Part shown: positions 1 through 42,894 of the stretch, one piece after another
Position numbering within the stretch: position 1 is the first letter of the stretch
Layout of the letters: each line of letters begins with the position of its first letter
Origin: an uncultured Chloroflexia bacterium
Lineage (GTDB): Bacteria; Chloroflexota; Anaerolineae; Anaerolineales; UBA4823
Length of the DNA: 64,000 nt
Assembly: GCA_963793095.1 (NCBI GenBank)
Contig: CAWBYY010000011.1
Span: 1,151,631 to 1,215,630 of the forward strand
Reading direction: 5' to 3'
Position numbers and translations under genes: made by a program
The notes under the pieces: generated by a model
Seen by the model: only the letters and a program-made list of their open reading frames with translations
Told to the model about the DNA's origin: nothing
The model's database searches: none

Positions 1-2680
1 CGGTGGCGGACTGGTATATAATGTTGAGGAGTTGCGGACGATTTGCAGCAGGGGATTATCGGCAAGCATCGTGAACCAGGTACTGGTCGAGGAATCTGTT
101 CTGGGCTGGGAAGAACTGGAACTGGAGGTGGTCAGGGATGCCAAAAACCAGATGATCACGGTCTGTTTTATTGAAAATGTGGATGCCATGGGTGTGCATA
201 CCGGGGATTCATATTGTACGGCACCCATGCTGACCATTGCTCCGGAACTTCAGGAACGCCTTCAGAAATATTCCTATGATATTGTGGAAGCGATTGAGGT
301 TATCGGTGGCACCAATGTTCAATTTGCCCATGATCCCGAAACCGGACAGGGTTGTAGTGATTGAGATCAATCCACGTACATCGCGTTCTTCTGCCCTGGC
401 TTCCAAGGCAACCGGTTTCCCATTGCCTTGGTCTCATCCCTGCTTGCCGGGGGATTGACCATGGATGAGATCCCTTACTGGCGGGATGGCACACTGGAAA
501 AATACACACCTTCGGGAGATTATGTGGTGGTGAAATTTGCCCGATGGGCATTTGAAAAATTTGATGGCCTGGAAGATAAACTCGGTACCCAGATGCAGGC
601 TGTGGGCGAAGTGATGAGTATTGGCAAAAACTATAAGGAAGCCCTTCAGAAAGCCATTCGTTCACTGGAAATCGGTCGGTACGGACTTGGATTTGCCAAG
701 GATTTTAACAAAAAGTCCCTGGATGATCTTATGGCCATGCTCAAACATCCCTCCAGCGAAAGGCAGTTTATTATGTATGAAGCACTGCGCAAAGGGGCAG
801 ATATCGAAGATCTTTTCCAGAGAACCCATATCAAACCCTGGTTCATATCACAGATGAAGGAACTGGTGGAGCTGGAGGAAGAAATCCTCAAATATAAAGG
901 GAAAGCACTGCCGGATGATCTGCTTATACAGGCAAAAAAAGATGGATTTGCTGACAAATATCTATCCAGGCTGCTGGATATTCCTGAAAAGGAGATCCGG
1001 GAAAAACGCATTGCACTGGGAATGAAGGAAGCCTGGGAAGCCTGTTCCGGTAAGCGGGGTTGAAAATGCAGCCTATTATTTTTCCACCTATAATGCACCG
1101 GATACAGGTAGAGGTCAGCGACAGGAAGAAAATCATGGTGCTTGGAGGCGGTCCCAACAGAATCGGACAGGGAATTGAATTTGATTATTGCTGTGTCCAT
1201 GCAGCCTTTGCCATACGGGAATGCCGGATATGAATCCATCATGGTGAACTGTAATCCGGAAACCGTATCGACAGATTATGACACTTCCGACAAACTGTAT
1301 TTTGAACCACTGACCGTCGAAGATGTGTTGAGTATCTATGAAAAGGAGAAACCGGAAGGTGTGATCGTCCAGTTCGGTGGACAGACACCCCTGAATATTG
1401 CCAATGAGCTTGCTGAGGCCGGGGTTAAGATCCTGGGTACCACTCCGGAAACAATTGACCTGGCAGAGGACCGTGACCGTTTTCGAAAGATCATGACAAA
1501 GCTTGGAGATCCCGCAACCGGAATCAGGCATGGCCAGTACCCTTGAAGAGGCTCTCGACGATCGCAGAAAGAATCGGATATCCGCTGATGGTGAGGCCCT
1601 CCTATGTGCTGGGAGGCCGTGCCATGAAGATCATCCTGGATGAAGAAATGCTGGAACAATATGTTGCAGAGGCAGTGGGGGTCTCACCCGACAGGCCCCT
1701 GCTGATTGATATGTTCCTTGAGGATGCCATTGAAGCAGAAGCTGATGCCATTTCTGATGGAAATGATGTATTTGTACCTGCTGTCATGCAGCATATCGAA
1801 TATGCAGGCATTCATTCCGGAGATTCCGCCTGTGTAATACCTCCGGTTATCATTCCCGGGAAACACGAGGAGACCATCAAAGAATACACCAGAAAAATTG
1901 CCATTGAATTGAATGTAGTCGGTTTGATGAATATTCAGTATGCCATCTATGAAGATGTTGTCTATATACTGGAGGCAAATCCCAGGGCATCGCGCACAGT
2001 ACCTCTGGTTTCGAAAGTCTGCAATATTTCCATGGCAAGAATTGCCACCCAGATCCTGCTGGGACAAAAGCTTGCGGATTTTAACCTTAGAGATAAAAAC
2101 ATACCGCACTTTGGGGTCAAGGAAGCTGTATTTCCCTTTAATATGTTTCCGGATGTGGATCCTTTGCTGGGACCTGAAATGCGTTCCACCGGTGAGGTAC
2201 TGGGAATCTCCGACACATATGGCATGTCATTTTTCAAATCCCAGGAGGCAACACAGACCAGTCTTCCCGTCGAAGGACTGTGTGCTGATTACCATTGCGG
2301 ACAGGGACAAGGATAAGATCCTTGAATTTGCGAAAAATTTTCAGGATATGGAATTTAAGATCCTGGCCACCGGAGGCACCAGACAATTCCTGGAGGAACA
2401 TGGGATAGAATCTGAATTTATCAAGAAAGTCCATGAAGGCAGGCCAAATATCGTTGATGCCATTACCAATGGAGAAATCAACCTGGTGGTGAATACCCCT
2501 TCCGGAAAACAATCTGAGTATGATGATTCCTATATCAGGAAGAGCTGCATCAAATACAAGGTGCCCTATATTACCACAACCTCGGCAGCCCTGGCTGCCA
2601 CCAAAGGCATCAAGGACCGGAGAAACGGGGCCTACAAGGTAAAATCCCTGCAGGAATATCACGCTGATATTAAAGATTAA
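1..2680 (+). CDS. carB: carbamoyl-phosphate synthase large subunit (5' end outside window; reading frame broken repeatedly as assembled)
   Basis: ORF pieces 32-364, 237-458, 428-1063, 1142-1546, 1543-2316 and the 3' part of 1940-2680 read consecutively as CarB. Motifs include [49 protein letters not shown] (hand-translated near 1130-1210), [34 protein letters not shown] and a C-terminal MGS-like domain ([16 protein letters not shown]). I count at least 8 frame switches and no stops inside conserved blocks. Confidence 0.9.
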
Positions 2681-5521
2681 AATAGTTCCACAGGTCCCAT
2701 CATCCCCACCGGATAATAGGGTTGCCCGCTGGTCCATCGTTGGGCGGTTTGGTTATCCTTCAGGCTTTTAAGGTAGTTGCCGGCAATGGTGGTTATTTTG
2801 ATCGAGAGGAGGTTATCCCCTTTTTTCAGATGACCTCTTATATTATAAATATGGTTGCCATACCATTTGACACCTATCTATCTGCCCGTTGATGGCCAGC
2901 TCTGATACACCCTGTACCTTTCCAAGGCTTAACAGTGAATGGGCTGCCGTATTGGCTATCTGGATCTCTTTCTCATACACTGCTTCTCCGGCAAAGGATT
3001 TTAAACGGCTGTATTCCAGAAAATCAGCCAGTCTCCTCATCGAGGTTCGTCTTGTATTCCCATTTACATGGTTAAGAACCAGCCGCCATGGACCATTTAT
3101 TTCCGTACCGTCTTCCCTGGTCTTAAGGGACGGGAAGTCTTCACCCTCTCTTGCCTTTTCGAAAACAATGAGCATGGAAGCAGACGGAGCCAGTTCAAGC
3201 TGAACTTCTTTTTTGCCAACCGTTGCCGGGTACCGGTATTTCTTCCCGCTTTCCGGATCCCATACCCAGGGATAGCTGCCCCGTTCATCATGGAATCTTG
3301 CCCTGAAAGAGATTGGTTCCGTCAGGCTGGAATTCACAAAAAAGAAAATTTGAGCTTCACCTGCACGATAACAGACCTGGCTCAGCTGTTTATCGGGCAT
3401 TTCTATAATGACCAGGGGTGATGCCCGACAGCTTCCTGCAGGGAGGCATACCACCCGAGCAAATCCTCACCGGGAGAAGGGAAAAGGATTACATTCTGGC
3501 TGTGATTTTCAAACAACTTGTCCATGGCATCAACCACCTCTTTATCTCTTGCTTCATGTTCCTGGTAATGAGGAGAGCGGAAAGGTTTCTTGCCGATAAA
3601 AACGACCTTTCCCCCGGCCGTCGCCAATGCATCAAGGGCCCCTATGGTCGGCAATTCGATGGTCTCGGTTTCAGGGATCAGTAAGATCTGGTAAGATCGT
3701 TGCCCGTAGACCAGCCTCCCGGACCTGAAGGTGGCATTGTGAAGAATTTTTTCAGAGACATAATCGCAACCATCCCCGTTGTTATGTACCACTTCCCACA
3801 AGATTATGCTGGTAATCCGGATATTCATGGGTGGGGAAAGGATCACGCTGCGGGCCATGTTTCAGCCAGAGGTCTGTTAAAGGTTGCAAGTATGGCCACG
3901 TTGGACTGCAAGTCAGCATTCTGGAACAACCAGGACAGCCGGGTCTTATAGTCGGCCCATAATTTAAAATAGGGCCACCAGGGATTGCGTTCATTGAACC
4001 AGGTTCCGTACTGCACCCAGCCCGGATAGGGTGCTTCAGGGGGGGAATAGTTGAATCCATGCAGGATGGAGTGGGTTACGCCGGACAACATGCTCTGGTC
4101 CCCTGTGATCTTGATCCGCTCCAGGGTGGCCATGAAAACCATCTGGGTATTGGTGATCTCTTCACAGCTTACCAGCCGTTTCCCTGCCAGCCGGGCTCCG
4201 GAAGAAACAAATTTATTGATCATCCAGTATGACCTGCCCTCCGACCCCCTGTCAGGCAATTCACCACCAACCTTGGGCCTTAGCCAGGTTTCACATTCGG
4301 GTATATCGATGAACATGCTGGTTTCCAGGGGATGCATCCCCCGCCCGTAGGCCTGTACCCTTGACCGTACCCCGTTGTCATGGCACCATTGATTGAATGT
4401 ATCTATGAAGCGTTCCCTGAATAGTTCAAGCCGGGTCTTGTAAAAATCAAGCCTCACCCTGTTCAGCACATCCCTTACCCGGGGCGGAAATGTTGTACCG
4501 TATTCCTCTTCTACGGGATTCCCCATATGGCCTACTTTTTTCAGTACAAAGGGAAGATAGGGAAGCAGGGAATAACCGCGTCTTTCTTCAAATTCTTCCG
4601 GCAGGTCATCATTCCAGTTTGCACCTTCAAGCTCCATGCTGTCACAGAACATGGCCCTGAGGTGGTCTCCCATGGGACCGATCTTCTCGGTCAGCACATT
4701 GGATAAGCGATTCAGGTATCGCTCCACAGCGGGTTTGCTGTAATGGTTCAACACGGGACCAGCGGCTCCCGGAGCCCCGTTGATCACCGCCATATACCCT
4801 GTAAGTTTGACCACGTAATAGAGCACATGCCGCCCTTCGGGCACATCCACGACGATGGTCTCTTCGGCCAGCTGATCATCCAGGGAAATCCCCTCAGTGA
4901 ATTCATTTGAAACAGTTGGCACCAGCCTGCAGCATGATCATATCCCTGTAGACCGTCTCATGTTTCGAATGGATCTCAGGATCCACTTTTTGCAGCAATT
5001 CTTCCCGTGGAAAACTGGTATTGCTGTCCTCCCTCAAGGTCCAGGGTTTCAATGGTTACCATCTGGGTCTGCTCTTCCTTTTCCAGGAATTCCCCACCAA
5101 AGGGCCAGCCGGAACCAACGATCATATCGCATACCATGCCCCTTTCCCGGGCTCCCTGTAAGGCCACCTTCAGCATCTCAATCCACTCGTCCCCCAACCA
5201 CTCAAGGGTTTCATATCCAACCGGATCTGCTCCAAAGGGGAATTTGATGGGGTTGATCTCCACGCCGCCTATGCCTGCCTCCTTCATCACATCCAGCTCC
5301 CTCAGGATCTCATCCGCAGTAAGCCGGTCACCATTCCACCACCAACGGACAAAAGGTTTGGCGCTCATCGGGGGATCCTGAAAGCCCAGGTAAAGATCAG
5401 CGAGTTCCTGATCACCGGCATCCGGGGGTGTGCACCGCTGGAACAGCACAGGAGACAGGATCAGTCCCGCAGATGTCAGGGAACCTGTACGGATAAAATC
5501 TCTTCTGTTCAGATAGATCAC
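2677..5521 (-). CDS. Tat-signal glycoside hydrolase, GH106-like (putative alpha-L-rhamnosidase family); about 4 frame breaks as assembled
   Basis: Minus-strand pieces 4976-5521, 3843-4922, 3403-3858 and 2843-3454, plus a hand-translated tail (about 2677-2870: IGVKWYGNHIYNIRGHLKKGDNLLSIKITTIAGNYL...GPVELF stop), form one protein of about 948 codons. The GTG start is followed by a twin-arginine signal (NRRDFIRTGSL). The motifs PFVRWWWNG and GIGGVEINPI match, from memory, the Glyco_hydro_106-type family. The stop overlaps the carB stop by 4 nt (convergent genes). Confidence 0.55.
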
Positions 5522-14443: not shown

Positions 14444-14759
14444 GGGAATAGGATGAGGGGTTTTGTTATTATAAATTTACGTTAACTGTTTACCAATGTC
14501 AAGAACATGATGTAAAAGGATGGATTCACCATCCCCGCGGTATAAACGATGAAACAAAGACCAACCTAGTGTTCATGTATGTAGAAATAAAGCAATTCCT
14601 GGGGTCCATAAAATCTGTATTAGATTTTTTCCCATCATTTGAACAATGAAAAAAATACGTTTTCTAGATTAAGTTAAATATTAAACAATTCAGGTTAAAT
14701 AGATCCAATTCTCTTGCCTGGAACAGAAATTCGGTATTAATTTTGCAATAACTTAAAAA

Positions 14760-14795
14760 AGTACTTAAATTTGTACTTATTTAAATACTTCTAAA
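14760..14795 (+). promoter_or_regulatory. three tandem 12-nt imperfect repeats (AGTACTTAAATT / TGTACTTATTTA / AATACTTCTAAA) abutting the yefM ATG, including a TAAATTTG box at 14766-14773
   Basis: Read directly from the sequence. The period is 12 nt, starting at 14760, 14772 and 14784. TAAATTTG fits the Bacteroidota -7 consensus TAnnTTTG. This is a likely promoter/operator for TA autoregulation. Confidence 0.4.
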
Positions 14796-15050
14796 ATGAT
14801 CGCTGCAAATTTTACGGAATTCAGGACTGCTCTTAAAGATTATCTTGATAGCGTGGAAAACGACAATGAAACACTCATCATTAAGAGAAAATCTGGTAAA
14901 GGGGCTGTGTTAATTTCACTTGAAGAATACAATTCCATCATGGAGACGCTTCATTTACTGAGTTCTAAAGTGAATGCCAAAAGACTTTTTGATTCCATGG
15001 AGCAGATGAAGGATGGCTCAACTGTTCAAAATGGATTGATTGAAGAATGA
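14796..15050 (+). CDS. yefM: type II antitoxin, Phd/YefM family
   Basis: 84-aa ORF. NFTEFRTALKDYLDSVENDNETLIIKRKSGKGAVLISLEEYNSIMETLHLLSS is a classic YefM/Phd sequence. It overlaps the toxin gene by 4 nt. Confidence 0.9.
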   Translation: MIAANFTEFRTALKDYLDSVENDNETLIIKRKSGKGAVLISLEEYNSIMETLHLLSSKVNAKRLFDSMEQMKDGSTVQNGLIEE

Positions 15051-15313
15051 AAAGGATCATCTTTTCTAAAAATGCCTGGGATGATTATTCCTCCTGGCAG
15101 GATGAAGACAAGAAAATGCTCCGAAGAATCAATGCCCTGATTAAAAATATACAATCCAATCCAAGAGAAGGAATCGGCAAACCAGAACCTTTGAAGTTTG
15201 ATTTGACTGGATTATGGTCCCGAAGAATTGACCGGGAACATAGACTCGTGTATAAGGTTGAAGGATCAGATCTGCTTATATATAGTTGCAGGTATCATTA
15301 TGACAGCAAATAA
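15047..15313 (+). CDS. yoeB: type II toxin, YoeB/Txe family mRNA interferase
   Basis: 88-aa ORF. WDDYSSWQDEDKKMLRRINALIKNIQSNPREGIGKPEPLKFDLTGLWSRRIDREHRLVY...CRYHY closely parallels E. coli YoeB. Confidence 0.9.
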   Translation: MKRIIFSKNAWDDYSSWQDEDKKMLRRINALIKNIQSNPREGIGKPEPLKFDLTGLWSRRIDREHRLVYKVEGSDLLIYSCRYHYDSK

Positions 15314-22946: not shown

Positions 22947-25900
22947 ATGAGACGTACTACAAAATTACCTGGAAGGCGTCCGAAGCAGATGCGAACCTGT
23001 AAGACTTTTCAGGTATTGAGAACTTTATTGATTTTATTTGTGTTTCAGCTATTTGTCATGATTGCTGCAGCACAGCCTGTGACCGTAACAGGAACCATCA
23101 CAGATGCAGCCGGAGAGTCTATTATCGGGGCCAACATTTTAATAAAAGGTACCACCATCGGGACCATTTCTGATGTCAACGGGCAATTCAGCCTGGATGT
23201 GGATGATCCGACGGTCACACTCGTGATCTCCTTTATTGGATACTCCACGCAGGAGGTCGTTCCGGGAGACCAGCAGGTCCTCAGTATCATTATGAATGAA
23301 GATATGGTGGGACTGGACGAAGTGGTAGTGGTCGGCTATGGTACACAGAAAAAAGTGAACCTTACCGGGTCTGTGGGTACAGCCGATGGCGAAGTACTGG
23401 CAGACAGGCCCATCGCTAATACAGGTGAAGGCTTGCAGGGTGTCATACCTAATTTTAATATTACCATCCGGAACGGAGACCCTGCCGACACCCGCACCGA
23501 TTTTAATGTCAGGGGATATGAATCTATCAACGGTGGTAGTCCCCTCATCCTGATCGATGGAGTGCCGGGGGACCTTAACAGGCTGAACCCGAATGACATT
23601 GCAAGTGTCAGCGTATTGAAAGATGCTTCCGCTTCCGCCGTTTATGGTGCCAGGGCAGCTTTTGGTGTAGTCCTGGTTGAGACAAAAAAAGGAAAAGGCC
23701 GGAAGGCGAATGTTTCGTTCGGGGCGGAATTTGGATGGGCCAAGCCCATTTTCCTAATGGACCCGATCACGGACCCGTACCAGTTCGCTCTGGCAAGAAA
23801 CCAGGCCGAGCAGCGCACCAACGGAGCTGACAGTTACAACCAGGAAGCGCTTGATAGATACAAAAGATGGAGTGACAACCCCACTTTTGAAAATGCCTGG
23901 ACGGTCGAAGAGGGAATACTTCGTTTTAATGGGTACAACAATTATTCAGATGATTTGTTAATCGATTATGCCCCGCAGCAGAAGTACGACTTCAATGTTT
24001 CAGGGGCCTCTGAAAATGCATCCTATTATGTATCCTTCGGACACCTGAACAAGGATGGATACCTCAACAACAAGGAGAAGAACGAACACTTCAAACGGTA
24101 TAATGTGCTGCTGAAAGGTGATTTCAAAGTCAATAAATGGTTGTCCGTAGACAGCAGGGCATTGATCTCCACCGAGACAAGTGATATACCCACCTTTTAC
24201 AACTGGGATGTGAACATCAACACCACGGCACGTCAAAATCCAATAGCCCCGATTGCATTCCCGGACCTTCCGTATTACGTAACCCCGGGGGACCATGACG
24301 ATTATACACAGTACATAGGGAAGTATTTTGGTGGGACCAACTTTTTTGAGTACCTCGAAAGAGGCGGACGCAAAACCTTTACCAAAACCAACACCACCCT
24401 GACCCAGGGAGTAACGCTTACCCCCATTAAAGGTTTAAGAATCAGGGGAGACATCTCATATTCCCTCTATAACCGAATTTTCCAGGATGTGCAAAGCAAG
24501 GTGACAGTGATAGATCCAAACCCGGACCTCCTATCGGATAATATCCTGAGTAACGGGTACAGCGGAAATGACTTTATCCAGAACATCACTGACAATGACC
24601 AGTATTTTGTGTTGAATACCTATGCAGATTATACCATTGACCAGGGCTCCCATTATTTCAAGGCCATGGTTGGTTTTAACCAGGAGTGGGGAAGGAATCA
24701 GCAGATCGTCTCACAGGCATTCAGCCTGGTTACCCCTCAAATCACTGATCTGAATGCCACAGTAGGTGCTCAGCAAGCCGATGGTTCGAAGTCACATGTT
24801 GCCCTCAGGGGCGTATTCTACCGTGTGAATTACATCTTTAAGGACCGGTACCTGATAGAAGCCAATGGCCGGTATGACGGAACCTCCAGGTTCCCGAAGG
24901 ACGACAGGTTTGGATTCTTCCCGTCATTTTCTGCCGGATGGAGGATATCAGAAGAAGCATTCATGAGCGGAACAAGCAGCTGGCTGGATAACCTCAAGCT
25001 CCGCGCCAGCTACGGTACACTTGGAAACCAGTTGCTGGGAGACAACTACTATCCCTACATTCCAAGCATGGGAATCGGCAGTTCACCTATTATGTTAAGC
25101 GCCGGCACCAGGTCCCCCTATGTTTCAGCAGCGGGACTGGTTAGCCCGACATTGACATGGGAGACGGTGGTTACCCAGAACCTGGGACTGGATTTTACCA
25201 TGCTGGGGAACAGGCTTGATTTCTCTTTTGACATTTATTCACGGGATACCAAGGACATGTTAACGGATGTTACCTATCCTGATATCCTGGGTACTGATGC
25301 GCCTGAGGCCAATGCTGCCGATCTGAGGACCACTGGCTGGGAAATTGCGGCCACATGGAAAAACAGGATCAATACGAACTGGAACTATGGTGTTACACTG
25401 GCATTATCAGATAATAAAAGTGAAATCACCAAATACGATAATCCGACCGGATCACTCAATGAGCATTATGTCGGAGAGATCATTGGTGAACTATGGGGAT
25501 TTGAAACCCAGGGCATCTTCCAGACAGATGAAGAAGTTTTGGAAATTGACCAGAGCCAGCTGGGCTCCAACTGGAGACCGGGGGACATTCGCTACGCAGA
25601 CCTGAATGGTGACGGCAAAATTACCAGGGGTTCCAACACACTGGATGATCCGGGTGACCAGAAGATCATAGCCTATGAAAGTCCAAGATACAATTTTGGG
25701 ATCAATGGCAACCTGGGATGGAAGGACTTCACCCTGACCATCTTTTTCCAGGGTGTGCTAAAGTATGAGTACTGGCCGCCCAATGGTAACTGGAACGCCT
25801 TCTATCCCTACAATGCAGGGAATGTTGAGTGGTACTACCTGACAGAAACCTGGAGCCCTGAAAATCCAAACGCTTATTTTGCTGCACCGCATATCTCAAC

Positions 25901-26168
25901 AAATACTAAGCAGAATATTCAGGAACAGTCACGCTATGTACAGAATGCCGCCTATATTCGTCTGAAAACGATGACATTGGCCTATAACCTGCCTTCAGCA
26001 TGGGCCGGTAAGGTGGGAATGCAGGCTGCACGGATCTATTTCTCCGGATTGAACATGTGGGAATTTACCAAAATGCACAAGCCCCTTGATCCTGAAGTAC
26101 GGCCAACGCTGACCCAGGAATACTACAAGCAGCGTGTCTATTCTATAGGTCTGAATGTTACATTCTAA
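22947..26168 (+). CDS. susC: SusC/RagA-family TonB-dependent outer-membrane transporter
   Basis: Intact 1073-aa ORF. It has a CarboxypepD_reg-like domain (VTGTITDAAGESIIGANILIKGTTIGTISDVNGQFSL), a plug region (VVVGYGTQKKVNLTGSV) and a C-terminal aromatic residue (VTF). No STN domain is present. A possible later start lies at 22989. Confidence 0.95.
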   Translation: MRRTTKLPGRRPKQMRTCKTFQVLRTLLILFVFQLFVMIAAAQPVTVTGTITDAAGESIIGANILIKGTTIGTISDVNGQFSLDVDDPTVTLVISFIGYSTQEVVPGDQQVLSIIMNEDMVGLDEVVVVGYGTQKKVNLTGSVGTADGEVLADRPIANTGEGLQGVIPNFNITIRNGDPADTRTDFNVRGYESINGGSPLILIDGVPGDLNRLNPNDIASVSVLKDASASAVYGARAAFGVVLVETKKGKGRKANVSFGAEFGWAKPIFLMDPITDPYQFALARNQAEQRTNGADSYNQEALDRYKRWSDNPTFENAWTVEEGILRFNGYNNYSDDLLIDYAPQQKYDFNVSGASENASYYVSFGHLNKDGYLNNKEKNEHFKRYNVLLKGDFKVNKWLSVDSRALISTETSDIPTFYNWDVNINTTARQNPIAPIAFPDLPYYVTPGDHDDYTQYIGKYFGGTNFFEYLERGGRKTFTKTNTTLTQGVTLTPIKGLRIRGDISYSLYNRIFQDVQSKVTVIDPNPDLLSDNILSNGYSGNDFIQNITDNDQYFVLNTYADYTIDQGSHYFKAMVGFNQEWGRNQQIVSQAFSLVTPQITDLNATVGAQQADGSKSHVALRGVFYRVNYIFKDRYLIEANGRYDGTSRFPKDDRFGFFPSFSAGWRISEEAFMSGTSSWLDNLKLRASYGTLGNQLLGDNYYPYIPSMGIGSSPIMLSAGTRSPYVSAAGLVSPTLTWETVVTQNLGLDFTMLGNRLDFSFDIYSRDTKDMLTDVTYPDILGTDAPEANAADLRTTGWEIAATWKNRINTNWNYGVTLALSDNKSEITKYDNPTGSLNEHYVGEIIGELWGFETQGIFQTDEEVLEIDQSQLGSNWRPGDIRYADLNGDGKITRGSNTLDDPGDQKIIAYESPRYNFGINGNLGWKDFTLTIFFQGVLKYEYWPPNGNWNAFYPYNAGNVEWYYLTETWSPENPNAYFAAPHISTNTKQNIQEQSRYVQNAAYIRLKTMTLAYNLPSAWAGKVGMQAARIYFSGLNMWEFTKMHKPLDPEVRPTLTQEYYKQRVYSIGLNVTF

Positions 26169-26189
26169 TAACCAAAAAAGGAAAAGAAA

Positions 26190-27995
26190 ATGAAAAAGCA
26201 TATTATAAAAACAGGTTTGGTTGTTATTGCAACATTTTTGACTTTAAGTTGCAACGATGATTTTCTGGACAGACAACCATTGGATGAGATCAGCAATGAA
26301 TCTTTCTGGAATACCGAGAATGACCTGCTGGTCTACAATAACGGTCTGTATCATATTGCCAGAAATGATGATCTGGTACCCATTTTAATGGCATTCGATG
26401 ATGGTTTTGACAGCCACAAGTATACCAGCTGGAACCTGGACTGCTTCTCCGATAACATTGCACCGCGGGCTGACAGGCTTGATGAGTTCCAGCGGAAACG
26501 TGCGGGCAAACATGCTGTCATACCTGGTAGGGCCTGGTTTGGCTGGGGGGGATGGGACTTCCTAAGAGCCATCAATGTCGGTATGGATAATTATGGAAAG
26601 GCACAAGTTACTGATGAAGTTAGGAATAAATATATCGGTGAGGCACGCCTGCTGCGCGCATGGTTTTATCACGATAAAGTGCGCAAGTTTGGCGATGTGC
26701 AGTGGGTAGATACAGAGTTAAATATCGATGATGAAGATGTCCTCTACGGCGAGCGGGATGACCGTCAAACGGTTATGGCAAATGTGCTGGATGACCTGAA
26801 TTTTGCCTGTGCAAACATCCCGGATGACTGGGGTGACGGAAATGCGCCGGGAAGGTTGGACCGCTGGTGTGCACTTCTGATTAAGGCAAGGGTTTGCCTT
26901 TGGGAGGGCACCTTCCGGAAATACCACGGCGTTGGATCCGATGCTGATATGTGGTTACAACAGGCCGCTGACGCTGCCCAGGAGATCGTGGATAATGGCC
27001 CGTACGCATTGTATACAGGTGATCCTGATGGGAACGATTATAATGCCATACACCGGATGACGGATCTTTCCGGGAACCCGGAAGTAATGTACTGGAGAAG
27101 GTACCAGCTGGGTATCTACACCAATCACACCCAGAGTTATCACAGGGGTTATAATGGAGGAGCTACAAAAAGTATGGTTGAAGATTATCTCTGTACTGAT
27201 GGACTGCCCATTTCCCTTTCACCACTGTACCAGGGGGATGAGGTTTATGAAAATATCTGGGAAAACCGTGATCCAAGGTTAAGGCAGACCGTAATGCATC
27301 CTGACGACCAGCCATATTATTACTATGGGAACGGTATTCCCGAACTTTACCGATATCCCAGAATACAGGGCAATACCGGCGGTGGCATAAAAACCTATAC
27401 CGGATATCATATCATCAAAACGTATGAGAATGTTGCCGCATATAACACCTATAATGTTTCAGAAACCCCTGCCATTATATTGAGGTATGGTGAAGTCCTG
27501 TTAACCTTGGCTGAGGCAAAGGCGGAACTGGGGACCATTACCCAGGGTGATCTTGACGCGACCATCAACGCACTGCGCGACAGAGCGGGCCTCCCGGTCG
27601 AGGCACATCTGATTCTCGGCGCTGAACCAGTGGATCCGCGGTATACCTCATGGCACAGTGATCCGCTCATCGTCGAGATCCGCCGTGAAAGAAGGGTGGA
27701 ATTATTCATGGAAGGTTTCCGCTACTTCGATTTATTACGCTGGAAGTGGGGCAAACTGCTGGAGCAGAAAGATTACGGCATGCGTTGGGATGAGGCAACC
27801 CGCGCCCTGGTTGACCCGGAAGGTACTGTAACAGTAGGGTTTTCCGATGTGGATGGAGTCCCATACCTCGAACCATACCAGGGTACCGACTACGAAACCC
27901 CTGTATTCGATGAATCCAAGCATTATTTATGGCCCATTCCGATCGATGCTATTTCTCAAAATCCAGACCTAGGGCAAAATCCCGGTTGGCAATGA
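26190..27995 (+). CDS. susD: SusD/RagB-family nutrient-binding lipoprotein
   Basis: Intact 601-aa ORF 21 nt after susC. It has a lipoprotein signal (TFLTLSCNDDFLDRQP) and typical SusD blocks (ARLLRAWFYHD, ILRYGEVLLTLAEA, ERRVELFMEGFRYFDLLRW). Confidence 0.95.
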   Translation: MKKHIIKTGLVVIATFLTLSCNDDFLDRQPLDEISNESFWNTENDLLVYNNGLYHIARNDDLVPILMAFDDGFDSHKYTSWNLDCFSDNIAPRADRLDEFQRKRAGKHAVIPGRAWFGWGGWDFLRAINVGMDNYGKAQVTDEVRNKYIGEARLLRAWFYHDKVRKFGDVQWVDTELNIDDEDVLYGERDDRQTVMANVLDDLNFACANIPDDWGDGNAPGRLDRWCALLIKARVCLWEGTFRKYHGVGSDADMWLQQAADAAQEIVDNGPYALYTGDPDGNDYNAIHRMTDLSGNPEVMYWRRYQLGIYTNHTQSYHRGYNGGATKSMVEDYLCTDGLPISLSPLYQGDEVYENIWENRDPRLRQTVMHPDDQPYYYYGNGIPELYRYPRIQGNTGGGIKTYTGYHIIKTYENVAAYNTYNVSETPAIILRYGEVLLTLAEAKAELGTITQGDLDATINALRDRAGLPVEAHLILGAEPVDPRYTSWHSDPLIVEIRRERRVELFMEGFRYFDLLRWKWGKLLEQKDYGMRWDEATRALVDPEGTVTVGFSDVDGVPYLEPYQGTDYETPVFDESKHYLWPIPIDAISQNPDLGQNPGWQ

Positions 27996-38971: not shown

Positions 38972-40375
38972 ATGAAAAAGACCAGCCTTTATTCATTTAT
39001 GTGCCTGCTGTTTGCCCTCCATGCCTGCTCACCGGCAGATCAAAAACCCATGGTGATTGATGAAACCGGCAACTCCGAAACAATTGAAGAGGTTATTGAG
39101 ATTGATCTGGTCTGGGCAGGCCATCCGACGGGTTTTTGTCTCCTGACCCATGGCGATCGGCAGTATATTGCTTACTACAATGCCAACAGGAACATGATAG
39201 TCGGACAGAGAAACCTGGATGAAGATGATTTTTCACTTCACATTATGCCTCCGACCTATCGGGAAACAGCTGGCGGGACAAGTACGGTCCTGGGCTGGGA
39301 CAGCCATAATTCGGTTACACTGGGCATTGATAAAGAGGGTTTTATTCACCTTTCAGGAAACATGCATGCCAATCCGCTCACTTATTTCAGGAGCAAAAAG
39401 CCAAACGATATTTCCTCCCTTGTTCAGGTTTGGGAGATGGTCGGCCGTGAGGAGAATAGATGTACCTATCCGAAATTCCTTTATTCACGTGAAGGGGAGA
39501 TGATATACACCTACCGGGATGGCGGCAGCGGGAACGGTAACCAGATCTATAACATCTATGATACCGGGTCCAAATCCTGGTCAAGACTACTGGATACCCC
39601 CTTAACTGACGGACAGGGACTGATGAACGCCTATATTTCAAGTCCCGAGTTAAGAAGTGACAACTGGTACCATGCCTACTGGGTCTGGCGGGATACGCCG
39701 GATTGCCAGACAAACCATGACCTGTCCTATATGAAAAGTCCCGATCTGCAGCAATGGTTCAATGCATTTGGTGATTCTATTGAGCTGCCGGCATCCTACC
39801 CGACAAGCCAGGTTGTGGTGGACCCGATCCCGGCAGAGGGCGGGATCATCAACCTGGCAGCAAAATTCGTCCTGGATGCAAAGGACAACCCGGTTTTTGC
39901 CTATCACAAATATGATTCAGCAGGGAACCTCCAGTTCTATACCGCGCAGATCCTGGATGACAGGTGGATCTACAAACAGGTGACAAACTGGGATTACCGG
40001 TGGGAGTTCAACGGAAGGGGGAGCATTAACAGCGAGGTTATTCTGAAGGGTTTCAATGAAAGGGGGGATGGTTTTTATGAGCTGGATTACTGGCACATAA
40101 AATATGGCAACGGGTGCATCCTCTTAAATGGTGAATTTGAGTCTTGTGGGACTGTATTAAAAGCAGAACCACTCAGAACCCGTTTAAAGCCAGAAGGTGA
40201 TTTCCCGGGATTAATGGTTCAGACATTCGGGGACATTGGTAAGACTGGAGAAGTGGGAGTCAGGTATATGCTAAAGTGGGAAACACTGAACCGGAACCGC
40301 GACCGGCCCCGTCCGGAGCCATGGCCGGAACCCAGCCAGTTGTACCTGTATAAATTTATTTCCGGTATCAAATAG
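38972..40375 (+). CDS. BNR-4 repeat-containing family protein (Pfam BNR_4-like), lipoprotein
   Basis: 467-aa ORF with lipobox FALHAC. Blocks such as YIAYYNANRNMIVGQR and GWDSHNSVTLGIDKEGFIHLSGNMHANPLTYFRS match my memory of this family. Its function is uncharacterised to my knowledge. Confidence 0.5.
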   Translation: MKKTSLYSFMCLLFALHACSPADQKPMVIDETGNSETIEEVIEIDLVWAGHPTGFCLLTHGDRQYIAYYNANRNMIVGQRNLDEDDFSLHIMPPTYRETAGGTSTVLGWDSHNSVTLGIDKEGFIHLSGNMHANPLTYFRSKKPNDISSLVQVWEMVGREENRCTYPKFLYSREGEMIYTYRDGGSGNGNQIYNIYDTGSKSWSRLLDTPLTDGQGLMNAYISSPELRSDNWYHAYWVWRDTPDCQTNHDLSYMKSPDLQQWFNAFGDSIELPASYPTSQVVVDPIPAEGGIINLAAKFVLDAKDNPVFAYHKYDSAGNLQFYTAQILDDRWIYKQVTNWDYRWEFNGRGSINSEVILKGFNERGDGFYELDYWHIKYGNGCILLNGEFESCGTVLKAEPLRTRLKPEGDFPGLMVQTFGDIGKTGEVGVRYMLKWETLNRNRDRPRPEPWPEPSQLYLYKFISGIK

Positions 40376-40387
40376 TTTCTTGGCAAA

Positions 40388-40517
40388 ATGTACGTACATC
40401 TGCACAATGTACACGCAACGTATACGCTATGTACATAGTAAATTTATATGTGCATAAATCCTTGTTTTATGTACATACTTTATTAAATTTGTACATGATT
40501 ATCAAATAATGTATACA
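40388..40517. repeat. array of eight short TGTACA-type palindromes in the fic upstream region
   Basis: Read directly from the sequence. The copies are ATGTACGTACAT 40388-40399, AATGTACAC 40406-40414, CGTATACG 40419-40426, TATGTACATA 40428-40437, TATGTGCATA 40447-40456, TATGTACATA 40468-40477, TGTACA 40490-40495 and TGTATACA 40510-40517. The centres of the last four are spaced 21, 20 and 21 bp. Confidence 0.8.
40484..40491 (+). promoter_or_regulatory. candidate -7 promoter box TAAATTTG for fic
   Basis: It matches the Bacteroidota TAnnTTTG consensus 37 nt upstream of the ATG at 40528 and overlaps the seventh palindrome. The same 11-mer, TAAATTTGTAC, occurs upstream of yefM at 14766. Confidence 0.35.
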
Positions 40518-40527
40518 ATATCTAACC

Positions 40528-41625
40528 ATGGTTAAGACTGATCCGGCTATCCCTTACAATTCGCTGCCAAAACTGCCACCTAAAATTGATTTTGAAACAA
40601 AACAGATTTTGAGAAAAGTAGCAAGTGCCAGGGCTGCCTTAGCTGAAATGAAGGGTACAGGAGCCATAATACCAAATCTGGCCATGCTTATTAATACCCT
40701 GACGTTACGGGAGGCAAAGGACAGTTCTGAAATTGAGAATATTGTGACTACGCAAGACGAATTGTACGTTGCTTTTGCTACACAACAAAAAAAAATCAGT
40801 CCATCGATAAAAGAAGTCTTAAATTACAGGCAAGCCTTATGGTATGGCTACAATCTGATCAAAAAAAGGAAAATACTAACCATCAACGACATTACCAGTA
40901 TCCAGCAAATAATCATCGGGAATAGTGCTGGTATCCGCACACAACCCGGAACACAGTTAATAAACATGACGACCGGTGAAGTGATCTATACACCACCAGA
41001 AGGGGAAGAAGTGATACGTAAATTGCTTAAAAACCTGGAGGATTACATTAATTTGGATGACAATGGAATAGATCCCCTTATTAAAATGGCTGTGATTCAC
41101 CATCAATTTGAATCAATCCACCCTTTTTATGACGGGAATGGAAGAACGGGGAGAATTACAAATATACTTTACCTGGTTATGAAAGGATTACTGGATATTC
41201 CAATATTGTATCTAAGTTCCCATATCATTAAGAAAAAAAGGGAATATTACAGATTGCTTTCCGAAATCAGAAATGATAACAATTGGGAGGAATGGGTTTA
41301 TTATATACTCCATGGTATAGAAGAAACAGCGAATCAAACAACCATATTAATCAAAAAGATCAAAGAATTATTGGAAGTAATGATTGAAAAGATCAGAACA
41401 GAATTACCATCTGTATATTCCAAGGATTTGGTGGAAACCATCTTTGAGCAGCCCTATTGCAGGGTTGCTTCGATAGTTGATAAAGGATTGTATGAAAGAA
41501 GAACAGCCATGAAATATTTACGAGAGCTTGAAAGGATTGGTTTACTAAAAGCGATCCCTAAAGGAAACCAGATACTATTCCTCAATATAAGTCTCTATGA
41601 TCTGCTCAAACAGGATTTCAATTAA
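40528..41625 (+). CDS. Fic-family protein (class II, self-inhibited AMPylase type) with C-terminal wHTH
   Basis: 365-aa ORF. The Fic motif is HPFYDGNGRTGR. The N-terminal inhibitory motif SSEIEN fits (S/T)xxxE(G/N). The C-terminus RTAMKYLRELERIGLLKAIPKGNQILF looks like a winged helix. The gene is noticeably AT-rich by eye. Confidence 0.9.
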   Translation: MVKTDPAIPYNSLPKLPPKIDFETKQILRKVASARAALAEMKGTGAIIPNLAMLINTLTLREAKDSSEIENIVTTQDELYVAFATQQKKISPSIKEVLNYRQALWYGYNLIKKRKILTINDITSIQQIIIGNSAGIRTQPGTQLINMTTGEVIYTPPEGEEVIRKLLKNLEDYINLDDNGIDPLIKMAVIHHQFESIHPFYDGNGRTGRITNILYLVMKGLLDIPILYLSSHIIKKKREYYRLLSEIRNDNNWEEWVYYILHGIEETANQTTILIKKIKELLEVMIEKIRTELPSVYSKDLVETIFEQPYCRVASIVDKGLYERRTAMKYLRELERIGLLKAIPKGNQILFLNISLYDLLKQDFN

Positions 41626-41631
41626 TACCGC

Positions 41632-42894
41632 CTAGATCCGCGGTCCGTTTTCCAGCAGATATTCTTCTGCTTCGGCGTTCCAGAGTCCGTCATGCAGTTT
41701 CACTATTTTATGCAGGGCTGAAAAAATGGGATCTTCTTTGCCCTTCTCCGCGAATTCCTCAATGGCTGTCAGGGGAAGATCGATATGGGTATAGATCAGT
41801 TTTTTGCTCCCGGGGATACCGGGCAGGTTACAGGTAGCCTGAATAACGGCATTCAGTCCGCCGACATGGGTAACCAGGTAGGCCGGACTGATACGCCCGT
41901 CGACCATCATCCCGATGGACTTCCGAATATCATCCGTATTACCACCATTCGTTGCCACTATATGTGTGGCATTGTAATGGACATTGTAAAAGTTCAGGTC
42001 AGCCCTGAATTGTGTGTCAGCAGGTCCTGCAAAGAAGTTAAGGCAGCCATCTGTAGCTAGTAAGCTGTCTCCCTGTTCGACCAATGGTTTAACAGGGGCA
42101 AATACAAGTACATCGTCATAGCCTTTCTGTTCCCCTGCCAGGGATCTCAGATATGCTTCCGCGTCCTCATGGTCCGAGGTATTGACATAGTACAGGTCTA
42201 TACCCAGGCTGGCGGCCTCCTCCCTGGTGACAAGGCCGGCAATATAGTCCAAGCGTTTCTTGTCGATATCGGTCACAACCAGCAAGGAGGGCCTCCTTTC
42301 TGTATGAACAATAAAATCAATAGCAGCGATTCCCATAGGACCTGCGGCAGCGAGCATGGCCATTTTGCCTCCTTCCTTGATGCCCATCTTATGGACATAG
42401 GATCCAAAAGTTGTATGATAATGGGCCTCGAAGGTTCCGGCCACGCAGGAATAGGGTTCTGCCAGGGAACTCATAAAGTATGAATCGGCCTCGAAGGGGA
42501 TGATGCAATCCTGTTCCAGATATACCGCCGGGATGATCACATGTGTGGCATCTCCACCGAAATAGGGGAAAGAATAACCGGCTGCTTCCAGGGTCAGTGC
42601 CCCGAGTGCGGGCTGTACCGTAAATTTGTCCCCCGGCTTGAATTTGTGCTTCCACTTATCCCCTACTTCCAGGATTCTGCCGGCAAATTCATGTCCCACA
42701 ATGGTAGGGTTGTCCGCCACATCATTGGGCACCCTTTTGTGATCGGCACCAAGCCTGGCCGCCTTATAGGATGACATGCAGAGGCTGTCTGATATGACTT
42801 CGGCCAGGATCTCATCATCCTTCATGGCAGGCAATTCAAACTCCTCAAGCCTGAGGTCTTCCTTACCGTATAATCGAACCGCTTTCGTCTTCAT
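41632..42894 (-). CDS. zinc-dependent alcohol/polyol dehydrogenase (MDR family)
   Basis: 420-aa ORF. It has the GHEFAGRILEVG zinc motif and an N-terminal GroES-like fold pattern (AVRLYGKEDLRLEEFELP). It is the last gene of the minus-strand operon. Confidence 0.75.
   Translation of the reverse strand: MKTKAVRLYGKEDLRLEEFELPAMKDDEILAEVISDSLCMSSYKAARLGADHKRVPNDVADNPTIVGHEFAGRILEVGDKWKHKFKPGDKFTVQPALGALTLEAAGYSFPYFGGDATHVIIPAVYLEQDCIIPFEADSYFMSSLAEPYSCVAGTFEAHYHTTFGSYVHKMGIKEGGKMAMLAAAGPMGIAAIDFIVHTERRPSLLVVTDIDKKRLDYIAGLVTREEAASLGIDLYYVNTSDHEDAEAYLRSLAGEQKGYDDVLVFAPVKPLVEQGDSLLATDGCLNFFAGPADTQFRADLNFYNVHYNATHIVATNGGNTDDIRKSIGMMVDGRISPAYLVTHVGGLNAVIQATCNLPGIPGSKKLIYTHIDLPLTAIEEFAEKGKEDPIFSALHKIVKLHDGLWNAEAEEYLLENGPRI

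Follow-up and report, generated by a model that had tools for sequence, protein, structure and literature searches.

How the single-gene abortive-infection toxin SoFic stays silent, and then triggers, is an open question in the field. The locus described here bears on it. It lies in a 64,000-nucleotide stretch of contig CAWBYY010000011.1 from an uncultured Chloroflexia bacterium (hereafter the window), where a Fic-family gene is preceded by a cluster of short palindromes. The first-pass annotation of this DNA had noticed eight TGTACA-type palindromes between 40388 and 40517 and proposed that they form an operator for autorepression by the winged helix-turn-helix (wHTH) of the Fic protein. Our comparative analysis strongly supports this proposal: the array is probably the operator at which the winged helix of a SoFic-type Fic toxin represses the toxin's own gene. 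Such self-repression appears well supported because the array is conserved, is inherited together with the gene and has boxes that co-vary with the helix predicted to read them, and because two relatives, CccR and SoFic, bind their own promoters. The object is thus a known kind of regulation and not a new system.

A phased box array upstream of the fic gene

The gap between the end of a BNR_4-family gene (40375) and the fic ATG (40528) is 152 bp long, with a guanine-plus-cytosine (GC) content of 28%. Direct reading of this gap gave eight boxes of the aTGTACAt type, the number first reported:

40388-40399: S1, ATGTACGTACAT, a 12-bp perfect palindrome with the in-phase core TGTACG at 40389-94; counterpart of the −127 box of the orthologues
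40407-40414: S2, ATGTACAC, core TGTACA at 40408-13; counterpart of the −108 box of the orthologues
40419-40426: S3, CGTATACG, the weakest box, an extra one carried in an 11-bp insertion (40417-40427)
40428-40437: S4, TATGTACATA, a perfect 10-bp palindrome; mean column identity 0.91 (10 sequences)
40447-40456: S5, TATGTGCATA, core TGTGCA
40468-40477: S6, TATGTACATA, between the candidate −33 and −7 elements; mean column identity 0.94
40488-40497: S7, TTTGTACATG, overlapping the candidate −7 box; mean column identity 0.93
40508-40517: S8, AATGTATACA, core TGTATA at 40510-15 (one mismatch); some 15 bp ahead of the ATG, within the presumed 5' leader

As a baseline for box density, the 152-bp gap itself was shuffled 20000 times with its dinucleotide content preserved. 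ATGTACAT with at most one mismatch was found 7 times, against a shuffle mean of 0.72, and 0/20000 shuffles reached 7. Exact TGTACA occurred 4 times, against a shuffle mean of 0.38, with 4/20000 shuffles reaching 4. The other 152-bp stretches of the 64-kb window held a maximum of 2 sites by the first measure and 1 by the second, and every pair of near matches spaced 19-22 or 40-42 bp in the window lay in the fic array. The AT-rich composition of the region, which the first-pass annotation had put forward as a possible cause of the density, is therefore far from accounting for it.

The core centres of S1 to S8 fall at 40391.5, 40410.5, 40422.5 (the extra box S3), 40432.5, 40451.5, 40472.5, 40492.5 and 40512.5, giving centre-to-centre spacings of 19, 22 (12 + 10, split by S3), 19, 21, 20 and 20 bp. 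The boxes are thus phased as originally described, but the restriction of a 20-21-bp phase to the last four was too narrow, since a phase of about 20 bp spans the whole array. The 11-bp insertion (AACGTATACGC) is specific to the window and was present in none of the aligned orthologues. It is apparently a diverged tandem duplication of the preceding box and spacer (40406-22 versus 40417-33), and it amounts to one added helical turn, so that the phase of the array is preserved. Tandem Repeats Finder returned no match in the array, because repetition is limited to the 8-bp boxes and does not extend to the spacers; the array thus falls outside the ordinary meaning of a tandem repeat. An Rfam scan of 40200-41800 gave a single chance-level match and no known RNA element.

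Two candidate promoter elements lie among the boxes:

40461-40464, + strand: candidate −33 element CTTG, whose TTG (40462-64) is kept in the orthologues, 19 nt from the −7 box
40484-40491, + strand: candidate −7 box TAAATTTG, in place of which the orthologues have TAAGTTTG or TATCTTTG

The −7 consensus of Bacteroides promoters is TAnnTTTG (PMC4747536), and both TTG and TAnnTTTG are conserved in the orthologues at the spacing expected of Bacteroides −33/−7 elements. The candidate −7 box overlaps S7, in agreement with the earlier description of the seventh palindrome. A sigma-70 promoter scan found 8 sites against a shuffle mean of 5.1 (sd 2.3), which is close to the shuffled counts; the sigma-70 model does not apply to Bacteroidota. 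The terminator scan run alongside it found no intrinsic terminator.

The gene product is a SoFic-type Fic protein

The gene and the parts of it that matter here are as follows:

40528-41625, + strand: SoFic-like class II fic gene, 365 amino acids (aa), with Fic_N, Fic and SoFic-like_C wHTH domains
40723-40740, + strand: codons for the inhibitory motif SSEIEN (aa 66-71), of the class II pattern (S/T)xxxE(G/N)
41119-41154, + strand: codons for the catalytic Fic motif HPFYDGNGRTGR (aa 198-209)
41494-41535, + strand: codons for the predicted recognition helix (aa 323-336, E323-R-R-T-A-M-K-Y-L...)

By its profile and structural matches, the product is a SoFic-type Fic toxin of a known anti-phage family. 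Pfam assigned Fic_N (PF13784, 4.8e-27), Fic (PF02661, 3.6e-18) and SoFic-like_C (PF21248, 2.8e-24), all above the gathering scores. The catalytic motif fits the pattern HPFx[D/E]GN[G/K]R, and SSEIEN aligns with SoFic's own SSEIEN, which includes E73. A phmmer search matched the Shewanella oneidensis SoFic structures 9tch and 3eqx over the full length at E ~1e-98, with 45-46% identity to SoFic, and the SoFic defence model of PADLOC (PDLC03963) matched at 2e-114 over positions 8-360 of its 361. The NCBIfam equivalog NF046030 scored 443.7 bits, under its 550-bit cutoff, so that the protein is a family member but no equivalog by the NCBI threshold.

An AlphaFold2 (AF2) model had a predicted local distance difference test score (pLDDT) of 88.8 and, in Foldseek, superposed on 3zcn_A with a template modelling (TM) score of 0.95, a root mean square deviation of 1.5 Å and 45% identity. 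Its winged helix consists of helix 299-306, strand 310-312, helix 313-318, recognition helix 324-336 and a wing hairpin at 340-353; the segment ERRTAMKYL (E323 to L331) begins the third helix of this canonical wHTH. The motif positions, PF21248 and the model together confirmed the three features originally ascribed to the protein, namely the Fic motif, an SxxxEN motif and, at the C-terminus, a winged helix. Residues I47 and I48 align with SoFic L50 and L51, of which L50 (L47 in the Escherichia coli protein EcSofic) makes the hydrophobic contact of the N-terminal-helix homodimer.

What the literature reports on phage protection and on AMPylation of EF-Tu covers only the S. oneidensis and E. coli proteins. 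AMPylation of EF-Tu by SoFic requires homodimerisation. Cloning of wild-type EcSofic failed in a vector carrying one lac operator, and three operators were needed to prevent leaky expression. The SoFic system of E. coli H397 includes a small downstream antitoxin gene, AS1 (47 aa). No AS1-like gene follows the fic gene of the window, where the fic stop ends at 41625 and the convergent gene ends at 41632, leaving no room.

The array is conserved in close orthologues and moves with the gene

Scans of genome and metagenome collections yielded 160 loci. The close set comprised nine distinct loci with 72-82% protein identity and upstream sequence present, from Bacteroidota metagenome-assembled genomes and unassigned metagenome contigs; L084, a duplicate of L002, and L081 (89%), which starts inside the gene and has no upstream sequence, were left out. 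The first-pass annotation had named conservation upstream of homologous fic genes as a check, and the array and its spacing were kept in 9/9 of these loci. Box centres in the orthologues lie at about −148, −127, −108, −97, −78, −57, −37 and −16 relative to the start codon, with spacings of 21, 19, 11, 19, 21, 20 and 21 bp. In the alignment of 10 sequences, mean column identity was 0.83 in the boxes and 0.71 in the spacers, and a weight matrix built from 65 boxes was symmetric (a-T-G-Y-R-C-A-t). One locus, L083, has lost about 22 bp of its upstream region, including one box and the TTG of the −33 element, with the phase kept; together with the 11-bp gain in the 40406-40433 region of the window, this shows the array changing in steps the size of helical turns.

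Homology at the DNA level delimits a unit that comprises the gene and its array:

40420-41661, + strand: mobile fic-plus-operator module, 70-89% identical in DNA to loci of the window's clade

This homology extends no further than 40420-41625 (up to 41661 in the case of L081), and the flanks align to none of the clade loci, whose neighbouring genes are mutually unrelated. Since, in the loci with flanking sequence, the homology ends at the edges of array and gene and the neighbours are unrelated, the putative operator and the gene constitute one transferable unit, which by these alignments moves between phyla. The GC content of the module is ~36%, compared with ~49% in the flanks, in line with the AT-richness first judged by eye.

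Two other kinds of repeat were considered for the array and rejected. An iteron or replication origin was dismissed for lack of a rep gene and because the boxes are palindromes, not direct repeats. For an invertible promoter, no long flanking inverted repeats or recombinase gene were seen, and the orientation is fixed in all orthologues.

Box spacing and helix-box pairing across the family

We extended the comparison to 123 distinct loci outside the window's clade, using exact 6-mers within 130 bp upstream of the gene. Direct 6-mer repeats peaked sharply at 41 bp, a distance found in 27 loci when those on either side occurred in 1-9, and inverted 6-mers were enriched at 17-25 bp, with 19-30 loci per distance (12 at 24 bp) against ~4 in shuffles. 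These distances are the signature expected of boxes in alternating orientation with a 20.5-bp period. Phased multi-box arrays are accordingly common upstream of SoFic homologues, and the view that so dense an array is unusual for a single small gene was not upheld. Phenylobacterium and related loci carry boxes at −56(<), −36(>) and −15(<), positions that match S6, S7 and S8, and a spirochaete locus shows the 11, 20, 21 spacing pattern again.

In an alignment of 37 homologues (A1), R324 and A327 were invariant and T326 nearly so, while positions 323, 325, 328 and 329 varied. Box sequence varies with the residue class at 323-325. The ERR class (ERRTA[MSTG]KYL; 14 distinct loci), which includes spirochaete proteins only 50-54% identical, had a mean of 5.1 TGYRCA sites per 180 bp. 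The other helix classes with more than one locus had ≤0.35 per 180 bp; among single-locus classes, L107 (SRN) had 4 and SRT had 1. QRQAAS and KRQTAS helices pair with TGTCG/CGACA, a pattern that SoFic's KRQTASVYL fits; SRI and SRL helices pair with TGTATAG/CTATACA; the SRI, SRT and SRP helices of Sphingobacterium pair with TTTACATGA; and the KRK, SRK and KKK helices pair with ATGTCCAT, ATAGGACAA and ATGCCC, respectively.

Comparison with known regulators

The closest relative with a studied promoter is SoFic itself (SO_4266, mloA, S. oneidensis), which shares the architecture of the window protein. As a dimer, but not as a monomer, SoFic binds specifically to the first 100 bp preceding its start codon (bioRxiv 10.64898/2026.07.09.737422). 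The promoter sequence in Table S2 of that preprint contains five ATGTCGAT/ATCGACAT boxes, of which 3/5 lie in fragment F1, which SoFic binds in vitro; the presence of three ATGTCGAT boxes there fits the helix-box pattern. The ATGTCGAT box, 8 bp long, is related to ATGTACAT but differs from it, as the helix KRQTAS differs from ERRTAM, and the five SoFic boxes are oriented and less regularly spaced, whereas the eight boxes here are palindromic and in strict two-turn phase. In the preprint text that was searched, no motif is named and no test of regulation is described. Farther upstream of mloA, from −254 to −194 (fragments F3 and F2), there are also four TGTATAG/CTATACA boxes in alternating orientation exactly 20 bp apart. 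Boxes of this type elsewhere go with SRI/SRL-helix homologues and not with the KRQ helix of SoFic.

The regulatory precedent comes from CccR of Yersinia pseudotuberculosis, a Fic-HTH toxin that represses its own promoter via two inverted boxes, as established by footprinting, electrophoretic mobility shift assays, isothermal titration calorimetry and reporters; its regulation and toxicity are separable (PMC9755527). Like the window protein, CccR is a Fic enzyme with a C-terminal HTH, and its dimer binds inverted boxes near its own −35/−10 elements. It is a type VI secretion system effector and differs from the window protein in sequence (18% identity), fold (TM 0.59) and a back-to-back dimer unlike that of SoFic. 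Its operator consists of just two 10-bp boxes separated by 26 bp (36 bp between centres), as against eight boxes at 19-22 bp here. We had considered the 70 Å (70.2 Å) separation of the CccR helices as an explanation of the 20.5-bp period, and dropped it because of this difference in dimer arrangement.

CbFic2 of Coxiella burnetii, like the window protein a class II Fic enzyme with a C-terminal wHTH, ties DNA binding and dimerisation to its enzyme state: DNA binding induces its dimerisation and switches its activity (PMC10628234). CbFic2 differs in binding random DNA at nanomolar affinity with no defined operator, in targeting host histone H3, and in its distance from the window protein (20% identity, TM 0.64). 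The YefM-YoeB operator of E. coli resembles the array in its palindromic TGTACA core, its overlap with the promoter and its role in autorepression of a toxin module. It differs in having two hexamers 12 bp apart and an antitoxin of the Phd/YefM fold, where the fic array has eight boxes ~20 bp apart and no antitoxin partner. In operator geometry alone, the arrangement is analogous to the ARG boxes of ArgR, which are palindromic, lie ~21 bp apart centre to centre on one DNA face and are bound by a cooperative oligomer with winged-helix domains. ArgR is an unrelated protein, usually has two boxes and depends on a co-repressor. We did not find the operator motif, the 20.5-bp grammar or the helix-box pairing in the literature that could be searched.

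Proposed mechanism

In the self-repression that we propose, the Fic protein would act as a homodimer, each subunit reading one aTGYRCAt box through helix 323-336 of its C-terminal winged helix. A period of ~20.5 bp corresponds to two helical turns and would place all boxes on one side of the DNA, so that neighbouring boxes could be bridged by one two-fold-symmetric dimer. The alternating orientation seen at two turns in the family would likewise reflect the need of such a dimer to contact a single DNA face. Because the box of the window's clade is a palindrome, any two neighbouring boxes would serve as a site, and the array could accommodate as many as four dimers next to one another. RNA polymerase would be blocked by dimers bound at S6, which lies between the −33 and −7 elements, at S7, which overlaps the −7 box, and at S8 within the leader, while S1-S5 would add cooperativity and sharpen the response. 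The outcome would be tight negative autoregulation that clamps the level of a protein toxic at slight over-expression. Such tight control is plausible for a module with no antitoxin, given that three lac operators were needed for EcSofic. As a secondary possibility, the array might also act on the enzyme, since dimerisation is required for AMPylation by SoFic and is driven by DNA in CbFic2. The filament-like or looping modes of autorepression suggested in the first-pass annotation gained no support.

Several points weigh against this reading. Binding of the boxes by the protein, repression as its effect, the stoichiometry and the geometry are all steps that we infer, and the −33/−7 assignment is a putative one drawn solely from the Bacteroides consensus. 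The reading leaves the number of eight boxes and the conserved 11-bp step without explanation. The helix-box correlation is partly confounded by phylogeny, and a scan of 200 bp upstream of the gene gave no TGYRCA boxes at four loci with an ERRTAGKYL helix (L018, L022, L096 and L098). Gly at 328 is the sole difference between this helix and that of the window protein; these loci could be under another kind of regulation, or residue 328 could be important for binding. Finally, many homologues lie in operons, often after restriction-modification genes, and have no array.

The comparative data, useful but incremental, provide a testable operator, defined by an 8-bp box, a 20.5-bp alternating grammar, three core-promoter boxes and candidate specificity residues at 323, 325 and 328. 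A possible outcome is a set of orthogonal repressor-operator pairs. A bolder extension, which we consider unlikely, is a portable code. Here an invariant Arg/Thr/Ala core of the recognition helix would read ATGT, residues 323, 325 and 328 would read the next 2-3 bases, and arrays would assemble dimers side by side and cooperatively on one DNA face. The resulting nucleoprotein array would both silence the toxin gene and hold a dimeric state, and its disturbance in the course of phage infection would release expression and activity. If this were true, the operator would be part of the sensing mechanism in a single-gene defence system.

Alternative explanations

The array might instead control the enzyme, with repression a side effect. 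As a DNA scaffold, it would stabilise dimers and set the balance of AMPylation and deAMPylation or store the toxin, and its loss during phage infection would free the activity. The DNA-induced dimerisation and activity switch of CbFic2 (PMC10628234) lend this idea some appeal, as does the dependence of both SoFic activities, EF-Tu AMPylation and DNA binding, on the homodimer. Eight boxes also exceed what simple promoter occlusion needs, five of them lying upstream of the core promoter. Yet one chromosomal array holds only a handful of dimers and would be a poor enzyme store, CbFic2 is activated by random DNA and not by a specific array, and the positions most conserved across phyla are those of the three boxes over promoter and leader, which points to transcription control. 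A scaffold as the main function is therefore improbable. Far less credible still is that the cluster has no function, being either incidental to AT-rich acquired DNA or left over from the terminal repeats of a mobile element. The module is indeed AT-rich and looks horizontally acquired, and Tandem Repeats Finder is silent at the array. Nevertheless, the shuffles never reached the observed ATGTACAT count, the boxes keep their positions relative to the start codon across phyla and are conserved while the spacers drift, and the homologous stretch 40420-41661 contains no transposase or integrase gene, fic being its only gene. We regard this explanation as close to negligible.

The boxes could also be bound by a factor encoded elsewhere, either YefM-YoeB or another host regulator, which would couple fic to another module. 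The yefM-yoeB pair is present at 14796-15313 as first annotated, and cross-talk between the two modules had been suggested. The E. coli YefM operator has paired TGTACA cores, with hexamers 12 bp apart centre to centre (PMC1802561), and boxes with a GTAC core occur at the local yefM promoter, as does the 12-mer TTAAATTTGTAC, which is also found in the fic promoter (40483-40494). The yefM promoter (14759-14778), however, has its own operator of the published YefM layout: AGTACT (14760-65) and TGTACT (14772-77), 12 bp apart centre to centre and overlapping a TAAATTTG −7 box. In the fic array, by contrast, no two TGTACA-type hexamers are 12 bp apart, its sole 12-bp step (S2-S3) ending on the non-TGTACA box CGTATACG, and no yefM gene lies downstream of it; the YefM-type pair, defined as lying no more than 80 bp ahead of a yefM gene, sits upstream of yefM at 14796 instead. 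A host factor would also leave unexplained why the array accompanies fic into unrelated genomic surroundings and other phyla, and why the box sequence tracks the Fic recognition helix. Cross-talk with YefM-YoeB thus found no support, and binding by any such factor is very unlikely, while self-repression by the Fic winged helix accommodates both the co-inheritance and the pairing.

Genomic context and array-less homologues

As the first-pass annotation had it, the module sits between a polysaccharide-utilisation locus and a convergent catabolic operon. Upstream are SusC/SusD genes (22947-27995), followed by lyases and the BNR_4-family gene; downstream is a convergent dehydrogenase operon. Together with the orthologues from Bacteroidota, the SusC/SusD genes are indicative of that phylum. 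The homology to L081 (89%) passes the fic stop by 36 bp (41626-41661) and takes in the final ten codons of the dehydrogenase gene that converges on it (41632-42894), whose 3' end may have been supplied or rewritten by the inserted module.

In many distant SoFic homologues, including L010, L016, L017, L021, L032, L052, L055 and L056, at most a few dozen bases separate the start codon from the end of an upstream open reading frame. At these operon-type loci the C-terminus of the upstream reading frame resembles, by eye, a type I restriction-modification subunit, and the box array is absent. This suggests that they are operon-embedded, non-autoregulated variants in defence islands. At L003, a gene pair at 2098-3794, just upstream of the orthologous fic module, resembles an AbiEi/AbiEii-type toxin-antitoxin system, judging from N-terminal sequences only, and hints at a defence-island context in that genome.

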